Source: Botryllus schlosseri
Taxonomy: Eukaryota
Length of the DNA: 64,000 nucleotides
Reading direction: 5' to 3'
Assembly: GCA_051294905.1 (NCBI GenBank)
Contig: CM119372.1
Coordinates: 10,046,001-10,110,000 of the forward strand
Part shown: in pieces, positions 12,198 through 62,845 of the stretch
Numbering within the stretch: the stretch's first letter is position 1
How the letters are laid out: every line of letters begins with the position of its first letter
Position numbers and translations under genes: made by a program
The notes under the pieces: generated by a model
Seen by the model: only the letters and a program-made list of their open reading frames with translations
Told to the model about the DNA's origin: nothing
Databases searched by the model: none

Positions 12198-12724
12198 CAG
12201 GGTTGTAATGACTCAAGTCATGACTCGACTCGACTCACGATTTCCTGATGACTCGATTTGACTCGAGTCATTTTCTCAAAATACGGAAATGACTTGACTC
12301 GATTCGTGTCAATTTGTGTATTGACTCGACTTGGAATCGATTCATTGCGTATGACTCAAACCAAGTCATATGACTCGAGTCTCAAACGGTCAAGACCGAT
12401 ATTTCGTCGTAATTTCAAAGATTAGTAAAAGAACCATACTATTAGGATTTCGTCTATTAGTACTGGTACTCGAAAATGAGACCAGAAACTGCTAAAAGTG
12501 AGGCAAATTAGTATATTTTAAATGCGAATCATTCGATATCACCAAACATAGTTATAAAAAGTGTGTTTTACAAGACTTTTACTGGAAACTGGGCAGTCAA
12601 CACAATGACTTGGACTCCGACTCGAGTCGGTGATGAATTAAAAATGACTCGACTTGACTGGAGTAAAACTATTAAAGTGAGATTTACTTGTGACTCGGAT
12701 TCTTCTGACTCGATTACGACCCTG
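12198..12724 (-). mobile_element. GACTCGAGTC-family MITE, reverse orientation
   Basis: CAGGGTTGTAATGACTC...GATTACGACCCTG; reverse complement of the 45794-46388 body. Confidence 0.8.
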
Positions 12725-46388: not shown

Positions 46389-47717
46389 CCTCGTGCTAAT
46401 GCATGACATGACATTCTTCGTGCGGTCGTAGCTCGTAAGACGTAACTGCATGCGCTTACGCACTCTACCGACAGCATCTCTTAATATGAGCTGTTCACTA
46501 TCGGCGCTGTTCCATAATCAAAATATGCGCAAGGGAGTTATTTCTGCTGTTCAGTGTGCAGTGCTCCAGTGCATAGTGTGTAGTGCATAAAAATAATGAC
46601 ATCATGAACACTGTGGAAATATTTGATTTTTGTGTCATAGTAATAGAAGTGTAATATTTCCGACCGATGTTAAAGGTATCTCTCGCAATAGTATGTAGGT
46701 GCAGAAACTACAAAATTATCGCCACATAAATGCATTCACAGTGTGCCCACCGCCGGCTACGATTCGTCAGATTATATTTTCATCTGCTCAAGACACACAC
46801 ATAATGTACAATGCGATACCCGAATACACAATGCGATGCAATGACCATATAGGGGATTTCGAACGATCAACCAGTCTCTGAAACTGGCATCAACCTCGAC
46901 CTAGCGCCCCATGTTGAATCAATCAATCAGTTTTTTTTTGTTTTCATCATTTCAAAACACCACAAACCTGCGATACAATGAAAAGATAGTCTTTGGAGCC
47001 AGACACCCACCTTGGCCTAGGCCAGTGGTTCTTAACCTTGCCTCCAGTTGGCTTGTTTGGAATATATTCATGTCAAAATTGCTTAGTCACACAAAGCACT
47101 AAAACAAAATCCAATACCATTAATCATCCCGTGTTGCCAACCGCGGGTGTGAATTCGGGATGGTTCGAACCAAAGTCACTCAAATTCACAAACGAACCTT
47201 GGTAGGCTCTGCACTGTGGACCTTTTTCATATATTAGGCTACAATTTTCACGTTATTATAACATCTTTGGTTGAAATTTATCGCATTTCAACTGCAGGCC
47301 ACACTATGCATGGCGCTGGCAGCAGACAAATCAACACTAAACGAGCATGCACCTTGAAAAACTCAAAAATTTTACCTGCTTTGTTACAAATGTTTACTCG
47401 AAATATCCAGCTTTCTGTTTTTGAATATTTAGTGACTCTCTGCTGTGAGCTTGACCCTCAATCGCACAACACCAAGAGCGAAATACGCTACATGTGCGTA
47501 GTCAGCGAATGATGCCTATTCAACCCATCAATGAAATTGATATCGTTGTCTGATGTAAACAATCGTACGGGGTCCATCTCGATTTCATATGTTTATTGTA
47601 TCACAAAAACCAAATCCGTGCGATTGGGGTGTTGGCTATACTGCTGTATAAGTGCATGACGCCGAATACATTGTTCGGTCTGGCCTAGACCGTTAAGGCG
47701 TAAGTAGTTATATAGAT

Positions 47718-47935
47718 CGGTCGCACGCGGCTATGGGGTTCTTATGGCGGGGGTGGCATATCGCCTGGAAAACCCGGGGTGGCATATCGCGCTTTTAGAC
47801 CCCCCTCTCGGTCGCACATCGCCATTGGTTCTTATGGGCGGGGTCGCATGTCGCACTTTTAGATATAGGCATCTCTCGCACATCGCATGGAAAACTCGTG
47901 GTGGCATGTCGCACTTTCAGGTATCTCTCGCGTGG
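47718..47935. repeat. GC-rich subterminal repeats (GCAYRTCGC, GGTCGCAC, GGTTCTTATGG)
   Basis: Repeated gtggcatatcgc / gtcgcatgtcgc / tcgcacatcgc motifs; mirrored at ~61308-61525. Confidence 0.75.
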
Positions 47936-48368
47936 TGTTGAATATGTACGAGTCACCAACAATAACCGCGCGGACGGAAACGTGACTTGTTGTGAGGATT
48001 AAGCAGTGCGACCTATATTTCGAATGACCTGCGCGCTGAATTGTTTCCGTGCAGTCGCTACTATCGATTATTACACTAGACCGGTCAGTGTGAAATAGTT
48101 TGATCGTAAATTATGATATATGATGTCGTAGTTTAGTCGTGTCAAATGACCGCTTTCCTCGCTATTGATTGCCACCTGAATAATACTTTCGGCTTATTCG
48201 CTGTTTCGCGCCTACAGAATAATCTGCTGTTCACAGTCACAACTTCATCGCGATAGCGCAATTTTCACACCTCGATCAGTAGAACAACACCGCACTAACC
48301 CAGTTGTCGAATCACATAGGTCATACATATTACGTGAAATATTGTATTGTGGTATACAAATATGCAAA

Positions 48369-48980
48369 CTATTCTTTCAATTCAACAAGTCTAGTTAACG
48401 AATCGATTTTCAAGCTGCCGACACAGTTTTTAACACGAGTGAGTTGATATTTCTTCCCGGGTACGAGCGAGGCTTTGTTCCATTGATCCAAAACCACCTC
48501 GCCAGTATCATCCTTCAATGTAAAACTGTATAATTTCAACTCCTTTCCGGCACCAGAATTGACCGTCTTCTCCTCTCGAGAAACACAAGTAGCAGCGATC
48601 GAGACGTATTCATCTTTATTTCCGTATACCGATTCACAGGTCAATAATGGGTATTCTTCGGTCGTATGTCTCGATTTTCCATGCAGAGTTACTGACGAAG
48701 CCCGACCAAGTAATACAGCGGGTTTTCCAGTAAATTTATCAATTTGAACCCAACCGGATTTGACCATGAGTTTTTTTCGTTTGGCGAATGCTTTCTCAAT
48801 GTTCCCGAACAAATCACGATTGAAACACGTGAAAGATATCTCTTCGTTATTGCCGTCGATGAATATACCTTTGAGATATTGGCTAACGCCACCTCTTTTG
48901 GGTGATGAGACGAATTTGACGCCGACGTGAAAATTTGAAGTTGCTCCGACTTGCATAGTGTTGACGCTGTTCGATGTCAT
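48369..48980 (-). CDS. 203-aa tandem OB-fold, RPA/SSB-like ssDNA-binding protein (left-arm copy)
   Basis: Intronless ATG-to-TAG ORF; OB1 IFIDGNNEEISFTCFN and OB2 VSIAATCVS...YSFTLKDDTGEVVLDQWN resemble RPA-type OB strand motifs (DxxGxIxxTxF/W). Confidence 0.75.
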   Translation of the reverse strand: MTSNSVNTMQVGATSNFHVGVKFVSSPKRGGVSQYLKGIFIDGNNEEISFTCFNRDLFGNIEKAFAKRKKLMVKSGWVQIDKFTGKPAVLLGRASSVTLHGKSRHTTEEYPLLTCESVYGNKDEYVSIAATCVSREEKTVNSGAGKELKLYSFTLKDDTGEVVLDQWNKASLVPGKKYQLTRVKNCVGSLKIDSLTRLVELKE

Positions 48981-50889
48981 ATCGTTTGATAAAGTGTCAA
49001 CTTGAAATGTAACTCACTACACAAATCGAGTTGAATCGTATTTGAATGTATTGATTCGACCCAACTCAAATCCTATTAACGCGATCTGTTGAATCGAACG
49101 TAACCTGAATATTACTGACGCCAACATTCACCCGCATCGGGTCATTCACACATTCCACGCCGCTGTTTTAACACTTATAGAATCAATACCAACTATCTCT
49201 AACCCGATAATATTCAATCATTTTGGTAATTTGCCAACTTTAAATCCATTCGCGGGATGTACTAAAGGTAAATCCAAATAATCCAGAATGAAATATTTGG
49301 ACTTTGACATTGCGTGAATTGAAATAGGTTTGACAAACATGACTACCAACTTTGATCCAGCCACATTTCAAACTCAAAAGAATTATTCACAACATTAACA
49401 ATTGTTAAAACTCTAGTTTCACTTACTTGATTATATCATTACAACTCACAAATTTGAATTAATTCATCCTGGTTGTATTCATATGCTCTATCTTTTTATT
49501 CAATTGTAAAGGTTGTTACTATTCTGAAGACAAAGTATTTACTAATCGGCGCATATACGATTTGACTTGGACATATTATATTTTGAGTATACGAGATTTG
49601 AATGTCTGAACAATAACTGAGAATTATTTTTAACACAAATAAATCCGTATATTACAGCGTAAAAGATATTGGGGTGTCAGCAACTCTGTACGGTCGTAGT
49701 TACAACCACATTAACTAATCTGCCCAGGCAACTCGTCATGATCATTCCTGAAATCAACACAAACACGACCACTGACTTGAGTTAACCGCGAAACACCATC
49801 AAGTTTTAAATCCGCTTGCAGCTGACGGATTATTCGAATGCATCGATGGGGAATATTATTGAACTCGTCGGTATTGTTACTTCAACAAATTACACCGACT
49901 GCGAAAGTTAATATCGAATGGTAAGACTTGATCACATATTTGTTGATCACAGACATGACGAAAAAAAAAAACATTACCGAGATTTTATAAACTAGTCATA
50001 TTACTCTACACATCTATCAATATCAAAATGCGAGTCATCCAATTTTTCTACTAAAGTAACATTGCACTTTCGGATTCGGTATAGTCATACAAATTGTATT
50101 AAATCCAACATCAAAACAAAAGGAATTTTTTAGTTCATTGAAATCAAATCATTCGTCTTCGACTTGTGCTTTTCTAGATTACCCGCGACAATTCGTTTCG
50201 AGTGAGTTGTAACCAAAGTCAAGATATCTTTGTGTCCACAGATATGGAAGATGAATATAGCTAACACAATCACGAATCGACGTTTCAGAGTATTTCACGG
50301 GTGTATTAAACTTGTTAGTGTCACCTATCTAAAAGTACGCACGCGTTCGATTTCCATACCGACTGTTGCGATGTTTAGGATTCACTTACAATAACCACGG
50401 GTGAGGATTTAACATCAATGTCGTTACTGTCGGAATTTGCGACAGAGAATTGAAACATATACACTTTACAGAGTGTGAAAATATCACTTTGAGTATCGAG
50501 TACCGTTCGAAGCTAGCGATCAATTCTTTATCATTTCAGTAACTCCCCATTGTGCGTGCTAAATGTAAAATATCGCGAGGTTATACACTCTAAGACTTTG
50601 ATTATTGTAAAAGTAAATTGTGATATGTTTGTTAGATGCATCCAATTCAACTAGAAGTTTCTAGTATCCAACACTCGTAATATCAAAAAAGTACTTGCTA
50701 CACTGTTATTTGCTAAACGTGTTTTGCATTGTTGTTCATTTCTAGTATTTATTGAAATTGTTTTTGAACCCTCAAATAATAATTCCCGACATGAAACTAA
50801 GCCGCCGAAAGTCGTTACCATCACAAAGAAACAATTTGCACGATGTTTACTAAATGTATCCTATAGTTAGGTGTACTGGAATTATTTGT

Positions 50890-50892
<3 letters not shown>

Positions 50893-50932
<40 letters not shown>
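50893..50932. repeat. (AC)20 microsatellite, mirrored as (GT)20 at 58311-58350
   Basis: Direct count in both arms. Confidence 0.95.
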
Positions 50933-50934
<2 letters not shown>

Positions 50935-52409
50935 CCAGAGAAATTGGAAATTTTTCCGTTGTCATTCGCTAAAGTAAATGTCATCACAATACTCTGTCAC
51001 TAAAAGACGTTACTTGGACGTGCTTGCATTCTAGACATAGTTCTGATTTACCCAACACAAGACCCAAGGACAACCCTAGTTTCAGCCGAACACAGATATC
51101 CAAAATATCACACACTTCGCTATTCCTAAAGCACAAACACACGATACAAAATAATACTTGTTGTGTTGTTGCGGCATCATCTTCACAATATCACCATTTT
51201 GTTTGTGTCAATTAGTTACTTTGTATGTTATCCCACAACTCTTACAAAAGTACGAAGGATATTAACATCGCACTAAGTAATTAACTTTACTCGATATTCT
51301 CACATTACGAAACTAAAGAATGGTTGGTTAGACTCTACAAACTGTTTCGATATCACAAGACCTTTATTGTCTGAATGGGTGTTCATGTATCTTAATAATC
51401 AAATAGTTCAACACAGAACTAGTACTAACAGAAACATCAGAGTTGTTTACACAAAAGTTTGTATGTGTACAGTATGCAAATACCATGTGTAAGTCCAGCA
51501 CAATTGCAGTATCCATTCGAGTTTAGTCAACATAAATTTATTACAACGGAGCCAAGTAAACTTTCGTGAAAGAAAAGCATACTCACTTCCAGAGGGTTAT
51601 GACAACACCATAGCAGTTCCCCAACAACAAAGTACATATGTTTCTAGCCACAGTCCTTACATCTTTCACATAGATCAAACTACTTTGCTAACGAAAAGTG
51701 CTGAGTCATCACATGATCGCTCTCACAACAAAACAGCTAGTAGATATTATCATTCAAAATATTCCTAACCCTTTACACACCAGTGACAAATCATACAACG
51801 AATATGCTTTGCGGGTCGAATTGTTGTTCAGTGTCAAGTCTACCTGTTGAAACGTACATTAAACAGCGCAATCCAATTAAAACCACGAATCTATTTTCAT
51901 TTCGTCACATACAGAAAAATAAATTTTCTTTCTCCAACACATACTTGTAACCAATCGCTTTCATTAAACACACAACACCATAAAAGTATTTACTTTCTAC
52001 AACATAGACATTCCGATGTAGTCAAGAAATATTTTTATTAATCAAAATCATCGATTTCTGTTCACGGCGTTAGTGTGTGCATGTCATACCTGTGGGCCCC
52101 GTATTAAAATGGACACGACACGCTTGACTGTAAGGAGATAGAAGTCTATCACATCGATTTACATGTGGTCTTCGCTACGGTTTCAAAAAACGAATCATCT
52201 CTTTTGCATTGATCTAGACCGAGCAAGTTAGTTAATGGCCATGATTGTGTTTGTCATATGCGAATGATAGGGTTACTGTCAAATCTACATACAACAATCT
52301 TCTGACGATCATAATAGCAATTTCATTTTCCGCCCCTTCATAATTGTACAACTCGGTAACTACGTTTAACAAGACCAATCACACTACCGGCGTTGAACAC
52401 AAGATACCT

Positions 52410-53440
52410 ACCCAAGTAAAAATATCATTCTGGTTTGGACAACTGACGTTTACCTGTGTAAAATTATCATTTTCACTTGGAGGTCCACCGTTACCTAACT
52501 AAAATACCATTGTCCTTTGGAGATTTATCGTTTACCCAGTGTAACAATCCCCTTTTCACTTGGAAATCTATTTTTGGCCTGAATAACAAACCCCTTTTCA
52601 TTTGGAAATATATTTTTTCTCTTGGTAACAAACCTTTTTTACTTGGAAATATATTTTTTCTCTTGGTAATAAACCTTTTTCACTTGGAAATATATTTTTT
52701 CTCTGAGTAACAAACCTTTTTCACTTGGAAATATATTTTTTCTCTTGGTAATAAACCTTTTTCACTTGGAAATATATTTTTTGTCTGAGTAACAAACCTT
52801 TTTCACTTGGGAATATATTTTTTCTCTGGTTAACAAACCTTTTTCACTTGGAAATATATTTTTTCTCTGGGTAACAAACCTTTTTCACTTGGAAATATAT
52901 TTTTTCCCCGGGTAACAAACCTTTTTCCCTGAGCAACAAACCTTTTTCACTTGTAAATATATTTTTTCCTGAGTAACAAACCTTTTTCACTTGGAAATAT
53001 ATTTTTTTCCCTGGGTAACAAACCTTTTTCGCTTGGAAATATATTTTTCCCTGGGTTACAAACCTTTTTCACTTGGAAATATATTTTTTCTCTGGGTAAC
53101 AAACCTTTTTCACTTGGAAATATATTTTTTCCCCGGGTAACAAACCTTTTTCCCTGAGCAACAAACCTTTTTCACTTGTAAATATATTTTTTCCTGGGTA
53201 ACAAACCTTTTTCACTTGGAAATATATTTTTTTCCCTGGGTAACAAACCTTTTTCGCTTGGAAATATATTTTTCCCTGGGTTACAAACCTTTTTCACTTG
53301 GTGATCCGTCGTTTACCTGAGTAAAAATATCATTTTCCTTTGGGGATCTGGCGTTTACCCAGTGTAACAATACATTTTCTCTTGGTCATCTAGCTTTTCC
53401 TAGAGTAACAAAACCATTTTCATTTCGAAATCTGACAACC
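52410..53440. repeat. ~41-bp minisatellite (GTAACAAACCTTTTTCACTTGGAAATATATTTTTTCTCTGG) with degenerate flanking units
   Basis: Unit starts at 52871 and 52912; a 225-bp higher-order block recurs (CCCCGGG at 52906 and 53131). Confidence 0.92.
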
Positions 53441-54168
53441 ACACCGATAATTTGATATTTTTGTATTTTCTTACAGCGAACAGCGACAAAATATACACCA
53501 ACAACGACTCCGATACATTTGTCTAATCAAATATTCACTTGTGTTGGTGCATCCCATCAAAATCGTCGGTTACCCACATGCAATGCGCTCCTGTACACAG
53601 AAATGCATGTTTTGGAAAATTGGACAATAGGCTTCGATAGTTCTGTGATGTCCGGGTTCGTGCTTTGGATTTTCCAGAGTCAAAATGTCTGAATAAAACA
53701 CCTCCTTGACGATGGTTGGTATGTGGATAACGGTGTTCGGAAAACGGTTGGATTTATGTCACCCATCGCGATAACAATTCCAGGTCGAGTTTTCCCCCGC
53801 GTGTTTACTATATTGTGTCTTTATTGGTCATGTATGTCTCGACATTCAGTTTGAAATCGGAAACCCTGATAAAGTATGTAACCGGATCCGGATATCAACT
53901 CTGAATCGATAAACCAATGAACAATATTCAAAGTAAACATGTTACACCCTGTGTTTCCACGAAAAAATACCATCCAGACATACGTCGCGCTTGTTTGCCC
54001 ACATCAGTATACGCGTAAATGGAGGTGTGTGACATTGCATGCAATGTGTTGGTATACAAACATCGATCCACAGACATTATCATAGCCGGTAGTTTTGATA
54101 TAGATCGAATGTCATCACACCCGATAACAATGTCATACCAATAAGCCACATTGCAATGACTCTGAGTC

Positions 54169-55074
54169 CGCGCTATTACATCGATATTTCGACACCGTTC
54201 ACTGATTTACTCGATGGTGTTATCGTGTTGTAACATTACAAGATAGTCATGGCCCTATCTCCGGACAGACCACCCAGACCAATTGGATACATCGATCAAT
54301 GTGTTGTCCACACCGAAGTTTTCTGCTGCAGCGTTTGACCATGGTGAACTATCGAAGTGGTGCTCGAAATGATTGCGATCAGTCTTTCAGTCACGATGCA
54401 TGGATGTCGCTACTCCCACATAACGACTCCAGACAAATATCGTGAACAGTGATTATGCAAATCTCGGACTGATACTGTGATCCAATAAGGTGTGTTTCTG
54501 AGGAATGAAGACTGCAATCGTACACCACAATAGAACACTACCTCGCGATTTCACACGCAATCATAAAACACATCATCGTAAGGATTCAGTTCGTCCGGTG
54601 ACATTTCGAAACGGTCATCGCCACAAGAGATCGGTATCATTTTGAAAAGACATCGTCACAAGGCTATTGACGTCGATTCTGTTGGTCATGTCAATCCGTT
54701 TCACAATCCGCCGTTTTTCAACTTCCCGCACCATAGTGTTACGACACAGACAAGAAGCGTCGGTGGAAATAATAAAACACGGAAAGCACACTTTGGTGTT
54801 ATTTGACATGGATTTTACACCCGACGAACCTTACATTCGAGCGATGCATTGGAATGACGCTTGTATTATTGACGTAGAAGGAACAGAAATGTATCGATTT
54901 ATTGGTTTCGTACATATCCAACAAAAACCAGGGTATGTGATTGTGCGTGGTTCGCATATTCGACTGTGAACGCTCTATTGGTATATGCTGTATAGTTCAC
55001 TTTCACTGTCGTGCGAATAACCAATGTTACGGTTCGGTTCGATGTTTGTGTGTCTATATGTCACGCTTCAGATT
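54169..55074. other. 906-bp unique central spacer of the palindrome with short, possibly decayed ORFs (e.g. 54667-54969, +)
   Basis: Symmetry breaks at 54169/55074; no family recognised. Confidence 0.8.
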
Positions 55075-55802
55075 GACTCAGAGTCATTGCAATGTGGCTT
55101 ATTGGTATGACATTGTTATCGGGTGTGATGACATTCGATCTATATCAAAACTACCGGCTATGATAATGTCTGTGGATCGATGTTTGTATACCAACACATT
55201 GCATGCAATGTCACACACCTCCATTTACGCGTATACTGATGTGGGCAAACAAGCGCGACGTATGTCTGGATGGTATTTTTTCGTGGAAACACAGGGTGTA
55301 ACATGTTTACTTTGAATATTGTTCATTGGTTTATCGATTCAGAGTTGATATCCGGATCCGGTTACATACTTTATCAGGGTTTCCGATTTCAAACTGAATG
55401 TCGAGACATACATGACCAATAAAGACACAATATAGTAAACACGCGGGGGAAAACTCGACCTGGAATTGTTATCGCGATGGGTGACATAAATCCAACCGTT
55501 TTCCGAACACCGTTATCCACATACCAACCATCGTCAAGGAGGTGTTTTATTCAGACATTTTGACTCTGGAAAATCCAAAGCACGAACCCGGACATCACAG
55601 AACTATCGAAGCCTATTGTCCAATTTTCCAAAACATGCATTTCTGTGTACAGGAGCGCATTGCATGTGGGTAACCGACGATTTTGATGGGATGCACCAAC
55701 ACAAGTGAATATTTGATTAGACAAATGTATCGGAGTCGTTGTTGGTGTATATTTTGTCGCTGTTCGCTGTAAGAAAATACAAAAATATCAAATTATCGGT
55801 GT

Positions 55803-56833
55803 GGTTGTCAGATTTCGAAATGAAAATGGTTTTGTTACTCTAGGAAAAGCTAGATGACCAAGAGAAAATGTATTGTTACACTGGGTAAACGCCAGATCCC
55901 CAAAGGAAAATGATATTTTTACTCAGGTAAACGACGGATCACCAAGTGAAAAAGGTTTGTAACCCAGGGAAAAATATATTTCCAAGCGAAAAAGGTTTGT
56001 TACCCAGGGAAAAAAATATATTTCCAAGTGAAAAAGGTTTGTTACCCAGGAAAAAATATATTTACAAGTGAAAAAGGTTTGTTGCTCAGGGAAAAAGGTT
56101 TGTTACCCGGGGAAAAAATATATTTCCAAGTGAAAAAGGTTTGTTACCCAGAGAAAAAATATATTTCCAAGTGAAAAAGGTTTGTAACCCAGGGAAAAAT
56201 ATATTTCCAAGCGAAAAAGGTTTGTTACCCAGGGAAAAAAATATATTTCCAAGTGAAAAAGGTTTGTTACTCAGGAAAAAATATATTTACAAGTGAAAAA
56301 GGTTTGTTGCTCAGGGAAAAAGGTTTGTTACCCGGGGAAAAAATATATTTCCAAGTGAAAAAGGTTTGTTACCCAGAGAAAAAATATATTTCCAAGTGAA
56401 AAAGGTTTGTTAACCAGAGAAAAAATATATTCCCAAGTGAAAAAGGTTTGTTACTCAGACAAAAAATATATTTCCAAGTGAAAAAGGTTTATTACCAAGA
56501 GAAAAAATATATTTCCAAGTGAAAAAGGTTTGTTACTCAGAGAAAAAATATATTTCCAAGTGAAAAAGGTTTATTACCAAGAGAAAAAATATATTTCCAA
56601 GTAAAAAAGGTTTGTTACCAAGAGAAAAAATATATTTCCAAATGAAAAGGGGTTTGTTATTCAGGCCAAAAATAGATTTCCAAGTGAAAAGGGGATTGTT
56701 ACACTGGGTAAACGATAAATCTCCAAAGGACAATGGTATTTTAGTTAGGTAACGGTGGACCTCCAAGTGAAAATGATAATTTTACACAGGTAAACGTCAG
56801 TTGTCCAAACCAGAATGATATTTTTACTTGGGT
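55803..56833. repeat. Mirror copy of the ~41-bp minisatellite
   Basis: Reverse complement of 52410-53440. Confidence 0.92.
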
Positions 56834-58308
56834 AGGTATCTTGTGTTCAACGCCGGTAGTGTGATTGGTCTTGTTAAACGTAGTTACCGAGTTGTACAAT
56901 TATGAAGGGGCGGAAAATGAAATTGCTATTATGATCGTCAGAAGATTGTTGTATGTAGATTTGACAGTAACCCTATCATTCGCATATGACAAACACAATC
57001 ATGGCCATTAACTAACTTGCTCGGTCTAGATCAATGCAAAAGAGATGATTCGTTTTTTGAAACCGTAGCGAAGACCACATGTAAATCGATGTGATAGACT
57101 TCTATCTCCTTACAGTCAAGCGTGTCGTGTCCATTTTAATACGGGGCCCACAGGTATGACATGCACACACTAACGCCGTGAACAGAAATCGATGATTTTG
57201 ATTAATAAAAATATTTCTTGACTACATCGGAATGTCTATGTTGTAGAAAGTAAATACTTTTATGGTGTTGTGTGTTTAATGAAAGCGATTGGTTACAAGT
57301 ATGTGTTGGAGAAAGAAAATTTATTTTTCTGTATGTGACGAAATGAAAATAGATTCGTGGTTTTAATTGGATTGCGCTGTTTAATGTACGTTTCAACAGG
57401 TAGACTTGACACTGAACAACAATTCGACCCGCAAAGCATATTCGTTGTATGATTTGTCACTGGTGTGTAAAGGGTTAGGAATATTTTGAATGATAATATC
57501 TACTAGCTGTTTTGTTGTGAGAGCGATCATGTGATGACTCAGCACTTTTCGTTAGCAAAGTAGTTTGATCTATGTGAAAGATGTAAGGACTGTGGCTAGA
57601 AACATATGTACTTTGTTGTTGGGGAACTGCTATGGTGTTGTCATAACCCTCTGGAAGTGAGTATGCTTTTCTTTCACGAAAGTTTACTTGGCTCCGTTGT
57701 AATAAATTTATGTTGACTAAACTCGAATGGATACTGCAATTGTGCTGGACTTACACATGGTATTTGCATACTGTACACATACAAACTTTTGTGTAAACAA
57801 CTCTGATGTTTCTGTTAGTACTAGTTCTGTGTTGAACTATTTGATTATTAAGATACATGAACACCCATTCAGACAATAAAGGTCTTGTGATATCGAAACA
57901 GTTTGTAGAGTCTAACCAACCATTCTTTAGTTTCGTAATGTGAGAATATCGAGTAAAGTTAATTACTTAGTGCGATGTTAATATCCTTCGTACTTTTGTA
58001 AGAGTTGTGGGATAACATACAAAGTAACTAATTGACACAAACAAAATGGTGATATTGTGAAGATGATGCCGCAACAACACAACAAGTATTATTTTGTATC
58101 GTGTGTTTGTGCTTTAGGAATAGCGAAGTGTGTGATATTTTGGATATCTGTGTTCGGCTGAAACTAGGGTTGTCCTTGGGTCTTGTGTTGGGTAAATCAG
58201 AACTATGTCTAGAATGCAAGCACGTCCAAGTAACGTCTTTTAGTGACAGAGTATTGTGATGACATTTACTTTAGCGAATGACAACGGAAAAATTTCCAAT
58301 TTCTCTGG

Positions 58309-58353
<45 letters not shown>

Positions 58354-60262
58354 ACAAATAATTCCAGTACACCTAACTATAGGATACATTTAGTAAACAT
58401 CGTGCAAATTGTTTCTTTGTGATGGTAACGACTTTCGGCGGCTTAGTTTCATGTCGGGAATTATTATTTGAGGGTTCAAAAACAATTTCAATAAATACTA
58501 GAAATGAACAACAATGCAAAACACGTTTAGCAAATAACAGTGTAGCAAGTACTTTTTTGATATTACGAGTGTTGGATACTAGACACTTCTAGTTGAATTG
58601 GATGCATCTAACAAACATATCACAATTTACTTTTACAATAATCAAAGTCTTAGAGTGTATAACCTCGCGATATTTTACATTTAGCACGCACAATGGGGAG
58701 TTACTGAAATGATAAAGAATTGATCGCTAGCTTCGAACGGTACTCGATACTCAAAGTGATATTTTCACACTCTGTAAAGTGTATATGTTTCAATTCTCTG
58801 TCGCAAATTCCGACAGTAACGACATTGATGTTAAATCCTCACCCGTGGTTATTGTAAGTGAATCCTAAACATCGCAACAGTCGGTATGGAAATCGAACGC
58901 GTGCGTACTTTTAGATAGGTGACACTAACAAGTTTAATACACCCGTGAAATACTCTGAAACGTCGATTCGTGATTGTGTTAGCTATATTCATCTTCCATA
59001 TCTGTGGACACAAAGATATCTTGACTTTGGTTACAACTCACTCGAAACGAATTGTCGCGGGTAATCTAGAAAAGCACAAGTCGAAGACGAATGATTTGAT
59101 TTCAATGAACTAAAAAATTCCTTTTGTTTTGATGTTGGATTTAATACAATTTGTATGACTATACCGAATCCGAAAGTGCAATGTTACTTTAGTAGAAAAA
59201 TTGGATGACTCGCATTTTGATATTGATAGATGTGTAGAGTAATATGACTAGTTTATAAAATCTCGGTAATGTTTTTTTTTTTCGTCATGTCTGTGATCAA
59301 CAAATATGTGATCAAGTCTTACCATTCGATATTAACTTTCGCAGTCGGTGTAATTTGTTGAAGTAACAATACCGACGAGTTCAATAATATTCCCCATCGA
59401 TGCATTCGAATAATCCGTCAGCTGCAAGCGGATTTAAAACTTGATGGTGTTTCGCGGTTAACTCAAGTCAGTGGTCGTGTTTGTGTTGATTTCAGGAATG
59501 ATCATGACGAGTTGCCTGGGCAGATTAGTTAATGTGGTTGTAACTACGACCGTACAGAGTTGCTGACACCCCAATATCTTTTACGCTGTAATATACGGAT
59601 TTATTTGTGTTAAAAATAATTCTCAGTTATTGTTCAGACATTCAAATCTCGTATACTCAAAATATAATATGTCCAAGTCAAATCGTATATGCGCCGATTA
59701 GTAAATACTTTGTCTTCAGAATAGTAACAACCTTTACAATTGAATAAAAAGATAGAGCATATGAATACAACCAGGATGAATTAATTCAAATTTGTGAGTT
59801 GTAATGATATAATCAAGTAAGTGAAACTAGAGTTTTAACAATTGTTAATGTTGTGAATAATTCTTTTGAGTTTGAAATGTGGCTGGATCAAAGTTGGTAG
59901 TCATGTTTGTCAAACCTATTTCAATTCACGCAATGTCAAAGTCCAAATATTTCATTCTGGATTATTTGGATTTACCTTTAGTACATCCCGCGAATGGATT
60001 TAAAGTTGGCAAATTACCAAAATGATTGAATATTATCGGGTTAGAGATAGTTGGTATTGATTCTATAAGTGTTAAAACAGCGGCGTGGAATGTGTGAATG
60101 ACCCGATGCGGGTGAATGTTGGCGTCAGTAATATTCAGGTTACGTTCGATTCAACAGATCGCGTTAATAGGATTTGAGTTGGGTCGAATCAATACATTCA
60201 AATACGATTCAACTCGATTTGTGTAGTGAGTTACATTTCAAGTTGACACTTTATCAAACGAT

Positions 60263-60874
60263 ATGACATCGAACAGCGTCAACACTATGCAAGTCGGAGC
60301 AACTTCAAATTTTCACGTCGGCGTCAAATTCGTCTCATCACCCAAAAGAGGTGGCGTTAGCCAATATCTCAAAGGTATATTCATCGACGGCAATAACGAA
60401 GAGATATCTTTCACGTGTTTCAATCGTGATTTGTTCGGGAACATTGAGAAAGCATTCGCCAAACGAAAAAAACTCATGGTCAAATCCGGTTGGGTTCAAA
60501 TTGATAAATTTACTGGAAAACCCGCTGTATTACTTGGTCGGGCTTCGTCAGTAACTCTGCATGGAAAATCGAGACATACGACCGAAGAATACCCATTATT
60601 GACCTGTGAATCGGTATACGGAAATAAAGATGAATACGTCTCGATCGCTGCTACTTGTGTTTCTCGAGAGGAGAAGACGGTCAATTCTGGTGCCGGAAAG
60701 GAGTTGAAATTATACAGTTTTACATTGAAGGATGATACTGGCGAGGTGGTTTTGGATCAATGGAACAAAGCCTCGCTCGTACCCGGGAAGAAATATCAAC
60801 TCACTCGTGTTAAAAACTGTGTCGGCAGCTTGAAAATCGATTCGTTAACTAGACTTGTTGAATTGAAAGAATAG
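60263..60874 (+). CDS. 203-aa tandem OB-fold, RPA/SSB-like ssDNA-binding protein (right-arm copy)
   Basis: Translation identical to 48369-48980; oriented toward the element terminus. Confidence 0.75.
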   Translation: MTSNSVNTMQVGATSNFHVGVKFVSSPKRGGVSQYLKGIFIDGNNEEISFTCFNRDLFGNIEKAFAKRKKLMVKSGWVQIDKFTGKPAVLLGRASSVTLHGKSRHTTEEYPLLTCESVYGNKDEYVSIAATCVSREEKTVNSGAGKELKLYSFTLKDDTGEVVLDQWNKASLVPGKKYQLTRVKNCVGSLKIDSLTRLVELKE

Positions 60875-61703
60875 TTTGCATATTTGTATACCACAATACA
60901 ATATTTCACGTAATATGTATGACCTATGTGATTCGACAACTGGGTTAGTGCGGTGTTGTTCTACTGATCGAGGTGTGAAAATTGCGCTATCGCGATGAAG
61001 TTGTGACTGTGAACAGCAGATTATTCTGTAGGCGCGAAACAGCGAATAAGCCGAAAGTATTATTCAGGTGGCAATCAATAGCGAGGAAAGCGGTCATTTG
61101 ACACGACTAAACTACGACATCATATATCATAATTTACGATCAAACTATTTCACACTGACCGGTCTAGTGTAATAATCGATAGTAGCGACTGCACGGAAAC
61201 AATTCAGCGCGCAGGTCATTCGAAATATAGGTCGCACTGCTTAATCCTCACAACAAGTCACGTTTCCGTCCGCGCGGTTATTGTTGGTGACTCGTACATA
61301 TTCAACACCACGCGAGAGATACCTGAAAGTGCGACATGCCACCACGAGTTTTCCATGCGATGTGCGAGAGATGCCTATATCTAAAAGTGCGACATGCGAC
61401 CCCGCCCATAAGAACCAATGGCGATGTGCGACCGAGAGGGGGGTCTAAAAGCGCGATATGCCACCCCGGGTTTTCCAGGCGATATGCCACCCCCGCCATA
61501 AGAACCCCATAGCCGCGTGCGACCGATCTATATAACTACTGGCGTAAGCTTATATTCCATTGCAAGTCCTCGTCGAAATTTTTGGCAAAGCGACGAATGA
61601 TAGCCTATTGATTTTATGGGATTAATATATCATTTGATTGCTCCAGTTAATACATTTGTCGACGTTTAGAAAGTCAGTATAGTATGTGCTTCAGCATTGT
61701 GGC

Positions 61704-62845
61704 TAGCGTTGGGACCCCGGGAAATCCCGATCCCGGGATCCCGGGATTTGAAGCAATCCCGATCCCGGGATTAATCGCAATGAAATCCCGGGATTTGTAA
61801 ACAGCATCTACCAAGGCTTACGCAGCGTCATGTCTCTTATTTTGGTAATAAAGCAGTGTTACAAACTCAGCTGATTGTCTAAAACAGTTCACAATTAAAT
61901 GATAATAAAACCAACTAAGGCATAAAATGAACTGCACAATCATTTCCGCCGTAGTCTACGGATCGCAGCAGTGGCTTATTCTGCATACGACGCCAAAGTT
62001 GACTAAAAAATGGTCAACTTAACGGCGGTAACCGGTTTTTGGAGCACCTACTCGGTAAAATTACTTTTTATTTATTCAATTCTTAGGCGATCAAAGTAGT
62101 TAGGTGAATGATTTTCCCGTTTATATGTCCTCTTCTTCGAATCTGTAAATATGGGGCGATAGGGGATGGGGGCGATAATGTGTGTCGAGGTTGATAAGGT
62201 GGCGATAAGACGAAAAGGTTGGGAACCACTGGTATAGCACAAAGGGACTGGTAGCGCATTTAAGGTCCGTACACATGATAGTAATTAAATCAACCCGCAT
62301 GACTCAATCGGGCAAGCCAAAAAAAATCATTCCGTTTATAAATCGCATAATCCTCGGTTCGATGAACTTCCGAGACAGTTAACTGCTGTGGACGGGCTAG
62401 CATTTAAACAAATTGCTCCAAAGTGAGCAAATTCGTCGGGCCTTCAAGGCTGACGCTATAACTTGCCAAGATGTCACAAACGGGTTCGGGACTTCGTGAT
62501 CGAGCACAAAAAAAATCCGCAAGTGTGTGGAAAAAGAGCTTATATGGCTATGTAACGGAATGATGGACGTTTTTCGATCACGTTGGACAAATCAACTCCT
62601 ACACGAAGCAGGCGGTACATGAATTTAAACGCTCATTATCCGGGTAGCTTTCGATCGCTGCGTTTCATTCGTATTCACGGGAGCATGTTTTTTCGTCAAT
62701 ATTACAAGGAATAAATGTTGTCTGTGTAGCTTGTATGTGCATTTCGCTACTTTACCAATCCCGGGAAATCCCGGGATTGAGGAGCGAAAATCCCGGGAAA
62801 TCCCGATCCCGGGATTTGAAATTTGATCCCGAAGTCCCAACCCTA
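61704..62845 (+). mobile_element. hAT deletion derivative with ATCCCGGG subterminal repeats and transposase remnant
   Basis: TIRs TAGCGTTGGGAC...GTCCCAACCCTA; perfect TSD ATTGTGGC; remnants LTAVDGLAFKQIA and RFSITLDKSTPTRSRRYMNLNAHY (first catalytic Asp region) at ~62375-62640. Confidence 0.85.

Follow-up and report, generated by a model that had tools for sequence, protein, structure and literature searches.

The locus described here raises two linked questions: what is encoded by the one substantial gene of a perfectly palindromic mobile element, and why should that element carry the gene twice, once near each end? The element lies in the window, by which we mean the whole 64-kb stretch of Botryllus schlosseri DNA that was analysed. 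It is 13.8 kb long and consists of two 6466-nt arms, 100 % identical to one another, arranged around 906 nt and bounded by a 6-bp target-site duplication (TSD). Its parts are as follows.

47697–47702, no strand: left TSD, GGCGTA, read directly and the same as 61541–61546
47703–54168, no strand: left arm, 6466 nt, 100 % complementary to the right arm, its terminus starting 5′-AGTAGTTATATAG
48369–48980, minus strand: mirror copy of the 203-aa gene (predicted tandem OB fold), directed outward, identical to the right copy
52541–53301, no strand: 41-bp tandem repeat array of the inner left arm, with a mirror array at 55942–56702
54169–55074, no strand: unique 906-nt centre, common to the satellite family (repeat and genome search)
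54688–54969, plus strand: 93-aa frame in the centre, open, without a coding signature (14 centre copies compared)
55075–61540, no strand: right arm of the palindromic satellite, 6466 nt, complement of the left arm
60263–60874, plus strand: 203-aa gene, with predicted OB barrel 1 at residues ~14–102 and barrel 2 at ~125–201 (ORF and structural model)
60875–60925, plus strand: 3′ untranslated stretch, with a poly(A) site ~45 nt past the stop codon (RNA reads)
61541–61546, no strand: right TSD, GGCGTA, read directly

The element begins with AGTAGTTATATAG and ends with its complement. Polinton terminal inverted repeats (TIRs) reportedly begin 5′-AG, a feature attributed to Kapitonov and Jurka in 2006, and the window element has this start; the autonomous copy on contig C13 that is described below begins AGTAGTAGTATAG. 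The 6-bp TSD is perfect in four of five elements (the window element, its sister copies and the autonomous copy), the sister copies being flanked by GACGTT and CGCGGG, both perfect, and by CCTATG/GCTATG, which agree at five of six positions. Since elements built in this way are found at many loci, each with its own TSD, the palindromes are real insertions, and an assembly artefact was rejected on the same grounds as the origin of the perfect palindrome. The outermost ~200 bp of the termini are composed of short repeats that differ between copies, and the 41-bp tandem arrays near the inner ends of both arms contain 18.5 copies of the unit. An Rfam search of positions 47000–62200 found no RNA family.

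Apart from the two copies of the 203-aa gene, the 64-kb window has no ORF of at least 150 aa (ATG start, standard code), and such stop-to-stop frames of at least 70 aa as occur in the inner arm and centre are short, most of them overlapping tandem repeats. No polymerase or rve integrase is found among the ORFs of the element, which is thus non-autonomous and not itself a Polinton with the core gene set. The gene had been described in the initial annotation as the sole convincing cargo, and for the window copy this is true, the remaining frames of the inner arm and centre all being short. The 93-aa frame of the centre is fully open in 11 of 14 copies, meets a stop two codons early in two and carries an indel in one, and in several copies this stretch is 98–99 % identical even though the centre as a whole reaches only ~93 %. 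Its shared variants number 9, 7 and 9 at the three codon positions, with no third-position excess, and it may be a small conserved gene or a cis-acting site. Elsewhere in the window there are further inverted pairs at 12226–12590/45985–46349 (365 nt at 85 % identity) and at 611–874/3462–3725 (264 nt at 97 %), which probably represent other transposons.

The ORF at 60263–60874 (plus strand) comprises 203 codons from ATG to TAG, as established by ORF scan and translation, and its mirror at 48369–48980 (minus strand) shows 0 differences from it. Both read outward, with the stop end 666 bp from the element terminus, in accordance with the earlier description of an intact 203-aa ORF ~670 bp from each terminus. 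The length of the ORF is only suggestive, because one of at least 203 aa arose in 3 of 200 mononucleotide shuffles of the window. When the genome (495.5 Mb, 219 contigs) was searched with the ORF, however, all of the best 150 of 347 candidates, which were those scored, proved to be full length and stop-free. The genome therefore has at least 150 full-length copies, with 94–100 % protein identity, and most of those scored form −/+ pairs that are 10.7–12 kb apart. A chance ORF was ruled out by these intact copies together with conservation across 12 sequences, a pN/pS of 0.26 and RNA reads, all considered below. The encoded protein is basic (pI 9.4). We note that two 346-aa ORFs on contig C11 (C11:4997313 and C11:3642171; positions 503–1543 of each locus) contain the OB protein together with an N-terminal extension of ~140 residues, the DNA being 78 % identical over the part in common.

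The nature of the protein is indicated by its predicted structure. An AlphaFold2 model calculated from an alignment of 12 diverse family members has a pLDDT of 89.0 and a pTM of 0.81 (an earlier model from three sequences was poor, with a pLDDT of 56, and its Foldseek matches pointed the same way). Residues 14–102 of the model have the strand-strand-strand-helix-strand-strand order of an OB barrel, residues 125–201 form a second barrel, and the two barrels fill the 203 residues. When the PDB was searched with the model using Foldseek, the top match was Teb1 AB (E-value, 1e-10), in the company of Ustilago maydis RPA70 (2.7e-10, TMq 0.60) and human RPA70 DBD-AB (1jmc, 4e-10). The matches to Teb1 and the RPA70s span ~215–226 columns and include both barrels, as do those to POT1 and Oxytricha TEBP, and HIN-200 proteins (IFI16, p202 and AIM2-type) match over the whole length (1e-8 to 1e-7, TMq up to 0.50). 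Alignment with VIA-align, which is independent of Foldseek, placed Teb1 OB-A on residues 1–102 (Z 12.5, rmsd 2.1, 96 aligned) and Teb1 OB-B on residues 112–203 (Z 12.6, rmsd 2.1, 83 aligned), with further matches to POT1 (Z 12.6, 188 aligned), RPA70 entry 4gnx (Z 11.7, 195 aligned) and the HIN domain of p205 (Z 12.8); many archaeal RPA barrels also match. Among viral structures, BFVD gave 24 matches at E-values up to 0.001, mostly to baculovirus LEF-3, and the neighbours found with a protein language model carry RPA/OB Pfam families.

The model also accounts for the two RPA-like strand motifs that had been picked out in the initial annotation. These correspond to residues 41–54 and 155–168, and in the model each spans the loop after strand 2, together with strand 3, of one barrel, so that they occupy equivalent positions. 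Four aromatic residues (Y35, F53, W167 and Y178) are invariant across the 12 family sequences; in the model, strand 3 is followed by F53 in barrel 1 and has W167 at its end in barrel 2. The model has no domain beyond the two barrels, and the N-terminal OB-F and the DBD-C zinc ribbon of full-length RPA70 are both absent from it. By its predicted structure, then, the 203-aa protein belongs with the tandem OB folds of which RPA70 DBD-A/B is the type. The annotation had read from the motifs two OB folds without the RPA70 N-terminal or zinc domains and had named AlphaFold and Foldseek as a check; the predicted structure is indeed an OB fold (pLDDT 89), and AlphaFold, Foldseek and VIA-align agree on this description.

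It counts against the replicative ssDNA-binding role proposed below that telomere-end binders and dsDNA-binding HIN domains have the same fold and come close in score. The whole-length matches to the tandem OB domains of HIN-200 proteins, with the Z-score of p205, raise the question of whether the Botryllus protein might bind dsDNA and coat the DNA of the element or hide it from host sensing or silencing, in the manner of p202 in mammals. We consider this improbable, since the HIN-200 family is known from mammals, its matches rank below those to RPA70 and Teb1, the per-barrel alignments at ~2 Å are to RPA-class barrels, and the viral neighbours are SSBs (ssDNA-binding proteins). The protein has no sequence match to HIN-200 and no pyrin domain.

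By sequence the protein is a near-orphan, and its identity is resolved by structure. Its match to Pfam family PF01336 is below threshold (E-value, 0.14), and although five of the 12 family members match this profile (best E-value, 0.009), all fall under the 27-bit cut-off. Neither PF01336 nor PF16900 places the protein in a curated OB family. A search of the genome with the PF16900 profile found two other, host-like loci and none of the hundreds of OB copies. The sole strong match to PF16900 (RPA70 DBD-B) in the genome, at C11:21967390–21967650 (minus strand), lies within an uninterrupted 607-aa open frame, which may represent either a host RPA70 without introns or an RPA of another mobile element. 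Searching the PDB by sequence gave nothing relevant. A phmmer search of 1.84 billion representatives returned three matches, namely a 98 %-identical protein, a 214-aa relative at 25 % identity and a repeat-protein artefact, with no RPA protein among them; word-index searches added nothing to these, a cluster look-up of the near-identical protein and the 214-aa relative gave no names, and a scan of viral and metagenome contig collections with the family alignment found no relative. When the genome was searched with the outside relative P0004, two more OB families were found, one of 198–200 aa (55–56 % identity) and one of 235 aa (22–24 % identity).

The genomic context of the gene is considerably more informative than its sequence relationships. 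One longer pair of OB ORFs, on contig C13, takes in a complete autonomous Polinton of 16.66 kb with TIRs of ~850 bp (96.7 % identity) and the TSD AGTGTC. It encodes a 1280-aa protein-primed polymerase (PF03175; E-value, 1.7e-7), an integrase that combines an rve domain (2.8e-16) with a chromo domain (2.2e-9), and a P-loop ATPase that has sub-threshold matches only, including Pox_A32 (0.008); ORFs of 423 and 167 aa are in the positions expected for the capsid and protease genes and have no Pfam match. The genes are organized as a run of same-strand ORFs, with the OB ORF located 126 bp inside the left TIR on the strand opposite to the polymerase. The arrangement is not peculiar to this copy. Thirty-six of 395 candidate polymerase loci were scored, 32 of them being stop-free, and at no fewer than 28 of the 36 an OB ORF is situated 1.2–3.9 kb from the polymerase gene and divergent from it; the remaining eight have no OB partner among the matches listed, which does not imply its absence there.

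The two additional OB families have the same neighbour. The 200-aa homologue (55–56 % identity) adjoins a polymerase that is 68 % identical to the C13 type, and the 235-aa homologue (22–24 % identity) adjoins a shorter polymerase that is 36 % identical, one member having been fetched in each case. The polymerase of this third clade has 796 aa and aligns solely to residues 484–1278 of the 1280-aa protein (C7:29931500–29938505; L077:867–3257, minus strand), and a separate 310-aa ORF lies between the polymerase and OB genes (L077:5387–6319, minus strand), a layout that fits a split terminal-protein arrangement. Since the position beside the polymerase has been kept despite deep divergence of the polymerases, the gene is a long-standing part of the Polintons and not a recent capture. 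The OB gene is thus conserved among the Polinton/Maverick (adintovirus-like) elements that this genome harbours. Its link to a Polinton family is supported by the C13 copy and by the polymerase loci, and the genomic context of the homologues, which the initial annotation had listed as a check, is a Polinton polymerase in all three clades.

What might such a protein do? Protein-primed strand-displacement replicons need an SSB for the displaced strand (PMC8276246). For this reason, and because the gene lies beside a polymerase and the nearest structural relatives are RPA-class proteins and viral SSBs, we infer that the protein probably, though by no means certainly, has a replicative ssDNA-binding role by analogy with those systems. 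The gene is located just inside the left TIR, reads outward and is divergent from the protein-primed polymerase gene; its product is predicted to act as the element's own SSB, and would coat the strand displaced during protein-primed replication in the same way as adenovirus DBP, φ29 p5, PRD1 P12, Bam35 SSB and LEF-3. The main rival proposal starts from the location of the gene, which always adjoins a terminus and moves with it into the satellites, and from the fact that the first-ranked structure is that of Teb1, with POT1 and Oxytricha TEBP also matching across both barrels. The protein could then be an end- or origin-binding protein of the Teb1, POT1 or TEBP-alpha kind that recognizes a terminal sequence or overhang and either protects the ends or recruits the terminal-protein–polymerase complex, in place of serving as a general SSB. 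RPA70 and LEF-3 score equally well, however, gene order explains the adjacency to the TIR just as readily, and the variation of the outer ~200 bp of the termini between copies is less suited to a sequence-specific binder, so that we regard end binding as unlikely.

Across 31 distinct ORF sequences pN/pS is 0.26, and it is 0.23–0.28 in every subset of copies, these statistics being drawn from the best-scoring protein matches and hence biased towards intact ORFs. Variants shared between copies number 13, 12 and 35 at the first, second and third codon positions and singletons 20, 14 and 13, the pattern expected from purifying selection in active lineages followed by neutral decay of individual insertions. 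In 45 pairwise comparisons the ORF has 0 gap columns, as against 2.3 % and 5.8 % in the flanks. Neutral evolution among copies, which the initial annotation had allowed for, is not what is seen, pN/pS indicating constraint in a sample that favours intact ORFs.

The gene is also expressed. Single-cell RNA reads from the same species form a sense pile-up over the last 200 nt of the ORF, and in run X22 there is a 3′-end peak at 60685–60920, with seven reads that have A-runs after 60908; the poly(A) tails begin ~45 nt past the stop codon, and no spliced-leader junction was seen, 5′ coverage of the gene being thin. Bulk RNA reads cover the ORF and stop beyond 60920, although those of bulk run X24 count for little, 147 out of 154 having fitted only partially. 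The OB gene is therefore transcribed and polyadenylated, and the RNA data that had been suggested as a check do contain sense polyadenylated transcripts. In a separate single-cell pile-up at 59918–60035 the reads run into dissimilar sequence at either edge (52 and 66 reads), and this piece of the arm is therefore shared with another abundant transcript.

Such observations bear on whether the gene is simply a passenger, that is, a host RPA-like fragment that was captured once, has no role for the element and is intact because the copies are young. Helitrons carry RPA70-like genes, and many of the copies here are indeed very young: the arms within one element are 99.7–100 % identical in eight of nine pairs, as compared with 94–98 % between elements, which points either to very young insertions or to a homogenizing process, whether gene conversion or a mode of replication that copies one arm from the other. 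Yet the gene is still the neighbour of the polymerase where the latter has diverged to 68 % and 36 % identity and the gene itself to 55 % and 23 %, the low pN/pS holds in every subset, the gene is transcribed and polyadenylated, and no RPA was detected by sequence in the 1.84 billion representatives. A passenger of this sort is highly improbable.

There remains the question of why the gene is present in a palindromic satellite. The 906-nt centre has at least 40 full-length copies at 92–100 % identity (the best 40 of 1047 candidates), and all three of the copies sampled are flanked by the same inverted inner arms; the idea that the centre is a separate transposon which had jumped into a perfect palindrome was accordingly rejected. 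Five satellites with the same centre were sampled at the OB site, and none has an ORF matching the family profile there. In three of them homology is present on both sides of the site, but a different segment stands where the ORF would be; in the other two the fetched stretch is poorly aligned and thus uninformative. The palindromic form does not, therefore, require the gene, at least three of the five same-centre satellites being without it. The replacing segment is ~0.9 kb long, with homology resuming near the terminus (C7:29774300, C2:30527800 and C5:20410100). The breakpoint lies near window position 60247, and divergence at 60247/60248 is likewise seen in contigs of runs X1 and X2, which points to modular exchange just 5′ of the start codon.

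The initial annotation had reasoned that the gene is retained in order to stop the genome folding into a 6.5-kb hairpin. This rationale is not supported, as the gene occupies the same position in autonomous elements whose TIRs are only ~850 bp, lies beside the polymerase in two more clades and is missing from at least three of the five satellites. The simplest account is that the satellite of the window was built from the left end of a Polinton and that the gene was carried along by the adjoining TIR. It is present twice because it is located at the Polinton end and both outer arm ends would be copies of that end. A parallel is offered by defective adenovirus genomes in which a single end of the genome is present as an inverted repeat, as has been described. 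Taking the evidence as a whole, we assign a probability of roughly 0.6 to the reading that the gene encodes a Polinton-encoded, RPA-like SSB and that the window element is a non-autonomous palindromic satellite of that Polinton end.

A different emphasis would have the gene serve the palindromic satellite itself, either by stopping snap-back or because two copies supply extra SSB that favours its replication. Consistent with this, the 19 paired satellite copies taken alone have a pN/pS of 0.235 and shared variants numbering 6, 5 and 20 by codon position, and the intact copies (150 of the 150 scored, from the 347 candidates) are mostly mirror-image pairs. The satellite copies do not form a clade, however: on the ORF tree, which is poorly supported (14 of 27 inner branches unresolved), satellite and polymerase-linked copies are mixed, with nine label changes and as few in 301 of 500 label shuffles. 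Because the copies are intermixed, selection on satellite copies is not separable from selection on autonomous elements, and the signal in the satellites may be imported from the latter. Since in addition the gene predates the palindromes and is clearly lacking from three of five same-centre satellites, a benefit to the satellite is unlikely. In a broader version, an animal Polinton lineage would possess its own RPA-like SSB as a stable part of the replication module, and the palindromes would be snap-back copies that keep, express and benefit from the gene; we see this as possible but doubtful. If it were true, the satellite would give something back to its helper in the form of a replication factor, instead of only drawing on it.

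The reading that we favour, a Polinton SSB gene carried into satellites by its terminus, has a bearing on how these elements replicate. Polintons are thought to replicate like adenoviruses and φ29, by protein priming and strand displacement, a scheme in which a protein that coats the displaced strand is required, and no such protein is named in the searchable published Polinton gene sets. The tandem-OB gene, being conserved, expressed and adjacent to the polymerase in three clades, is a concrete candidate for that protein and, if the reading is correct, would supply the SSB that is missing from the proposed scheme. One of the numerous conserved Polinton proteins that had no name thereby receives one, and the hundreds of palindromic satellites in this genome, being built from a Polinton end, are tied to a helper. 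A literature search combining Polinton, Maverick and adintovirus with OB-fold, SSB, RPA and DNA-binding terms found no such gene reported, and a preprint on gene transfer among animal viruses contains none of these SSB/OB terms. In the searchable text of PMC8502044 the terms ssDNA, OB-fold, DBP and RPA each occur 0 times; the paper lists unnamed conserved 'Adintoc' proteins, and an unnamed equivalent of the OB gene may be among these or in the supplements to the paper.

Comparison with known systems helps to define what is shared and what is distinctive. RPA70 DBD-A/B (human 1jmc/1fgu; U. maydis 4gop/4gnx) likewise consists of two tandem OB barrels in ~200 residues and matches the model over its whole length (E-values, 2.7e-10 to 9e-10, TMq up to 0.60). 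A sequence relationship to RPA70 is nonetheless not detectable, the window protein is without OB-F, the DBD-C zinc ribbon and partner subunits, and it is encoded by a mobile element whereas RPA70 is encoded by the host. The best per-barrel superpositions are those of the telomere-end binders Teb1 OB-A/OB-B (Z 12.5 and 12.6, rmsd 2.1), POT1 and Oxytricha TEBP-alpha, which are RPA paralogues, but these recognize a specific G-rich repeat, and their likeness to the window protein is one of fold alone, at 14–17 % identity. LEF-3 is the ssDNA-binding replication factor of baculoviruses; it is a virus-encoded tandem-OB protein and the commonest structural neighbour in BFVD (6e-7 to 1e-4). It is, however, 340–680 aa long, is only 9–13 % identical and comes from viruses with large circular dsDNA genomes, in whose replication a helicase takes part. 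The RPA70-like proteins of Helitrons are also RPA-like OB proteins encoded by a eukaryotic DNA transposon that replicates through ssDNA. They are recognizable by sequence as captures of host RPA70 and include DBD-C, whereas the window protein is shorter, is not recognizable by sequence and belongs to a different class of element.

The proposed job would be that of adenovirus DBP, φ29 p5, PRD1 P12 and Bam35 B35SSB, which coat the displaced strand of linear genomes with a terminal protein and a family-B polymerase, as set out in PMC8276246. The same source states that the OB fold is not that of adenovirus DBP; the SSBs of the phages form an atypical group, none of these proteins has an RPA-like tandem barrel, and the likeness would thus be functional only. 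The autonomous relatives of the window element, finally, share with the published Polinton, Maverick and adintovirus sets (Starrett et al. 2021, PMC8502044; Krupovic et al. 2014, PMC4028283) the polymerase, the rve integrase, the ATPase, the 6-bp TSD and the TIRs.
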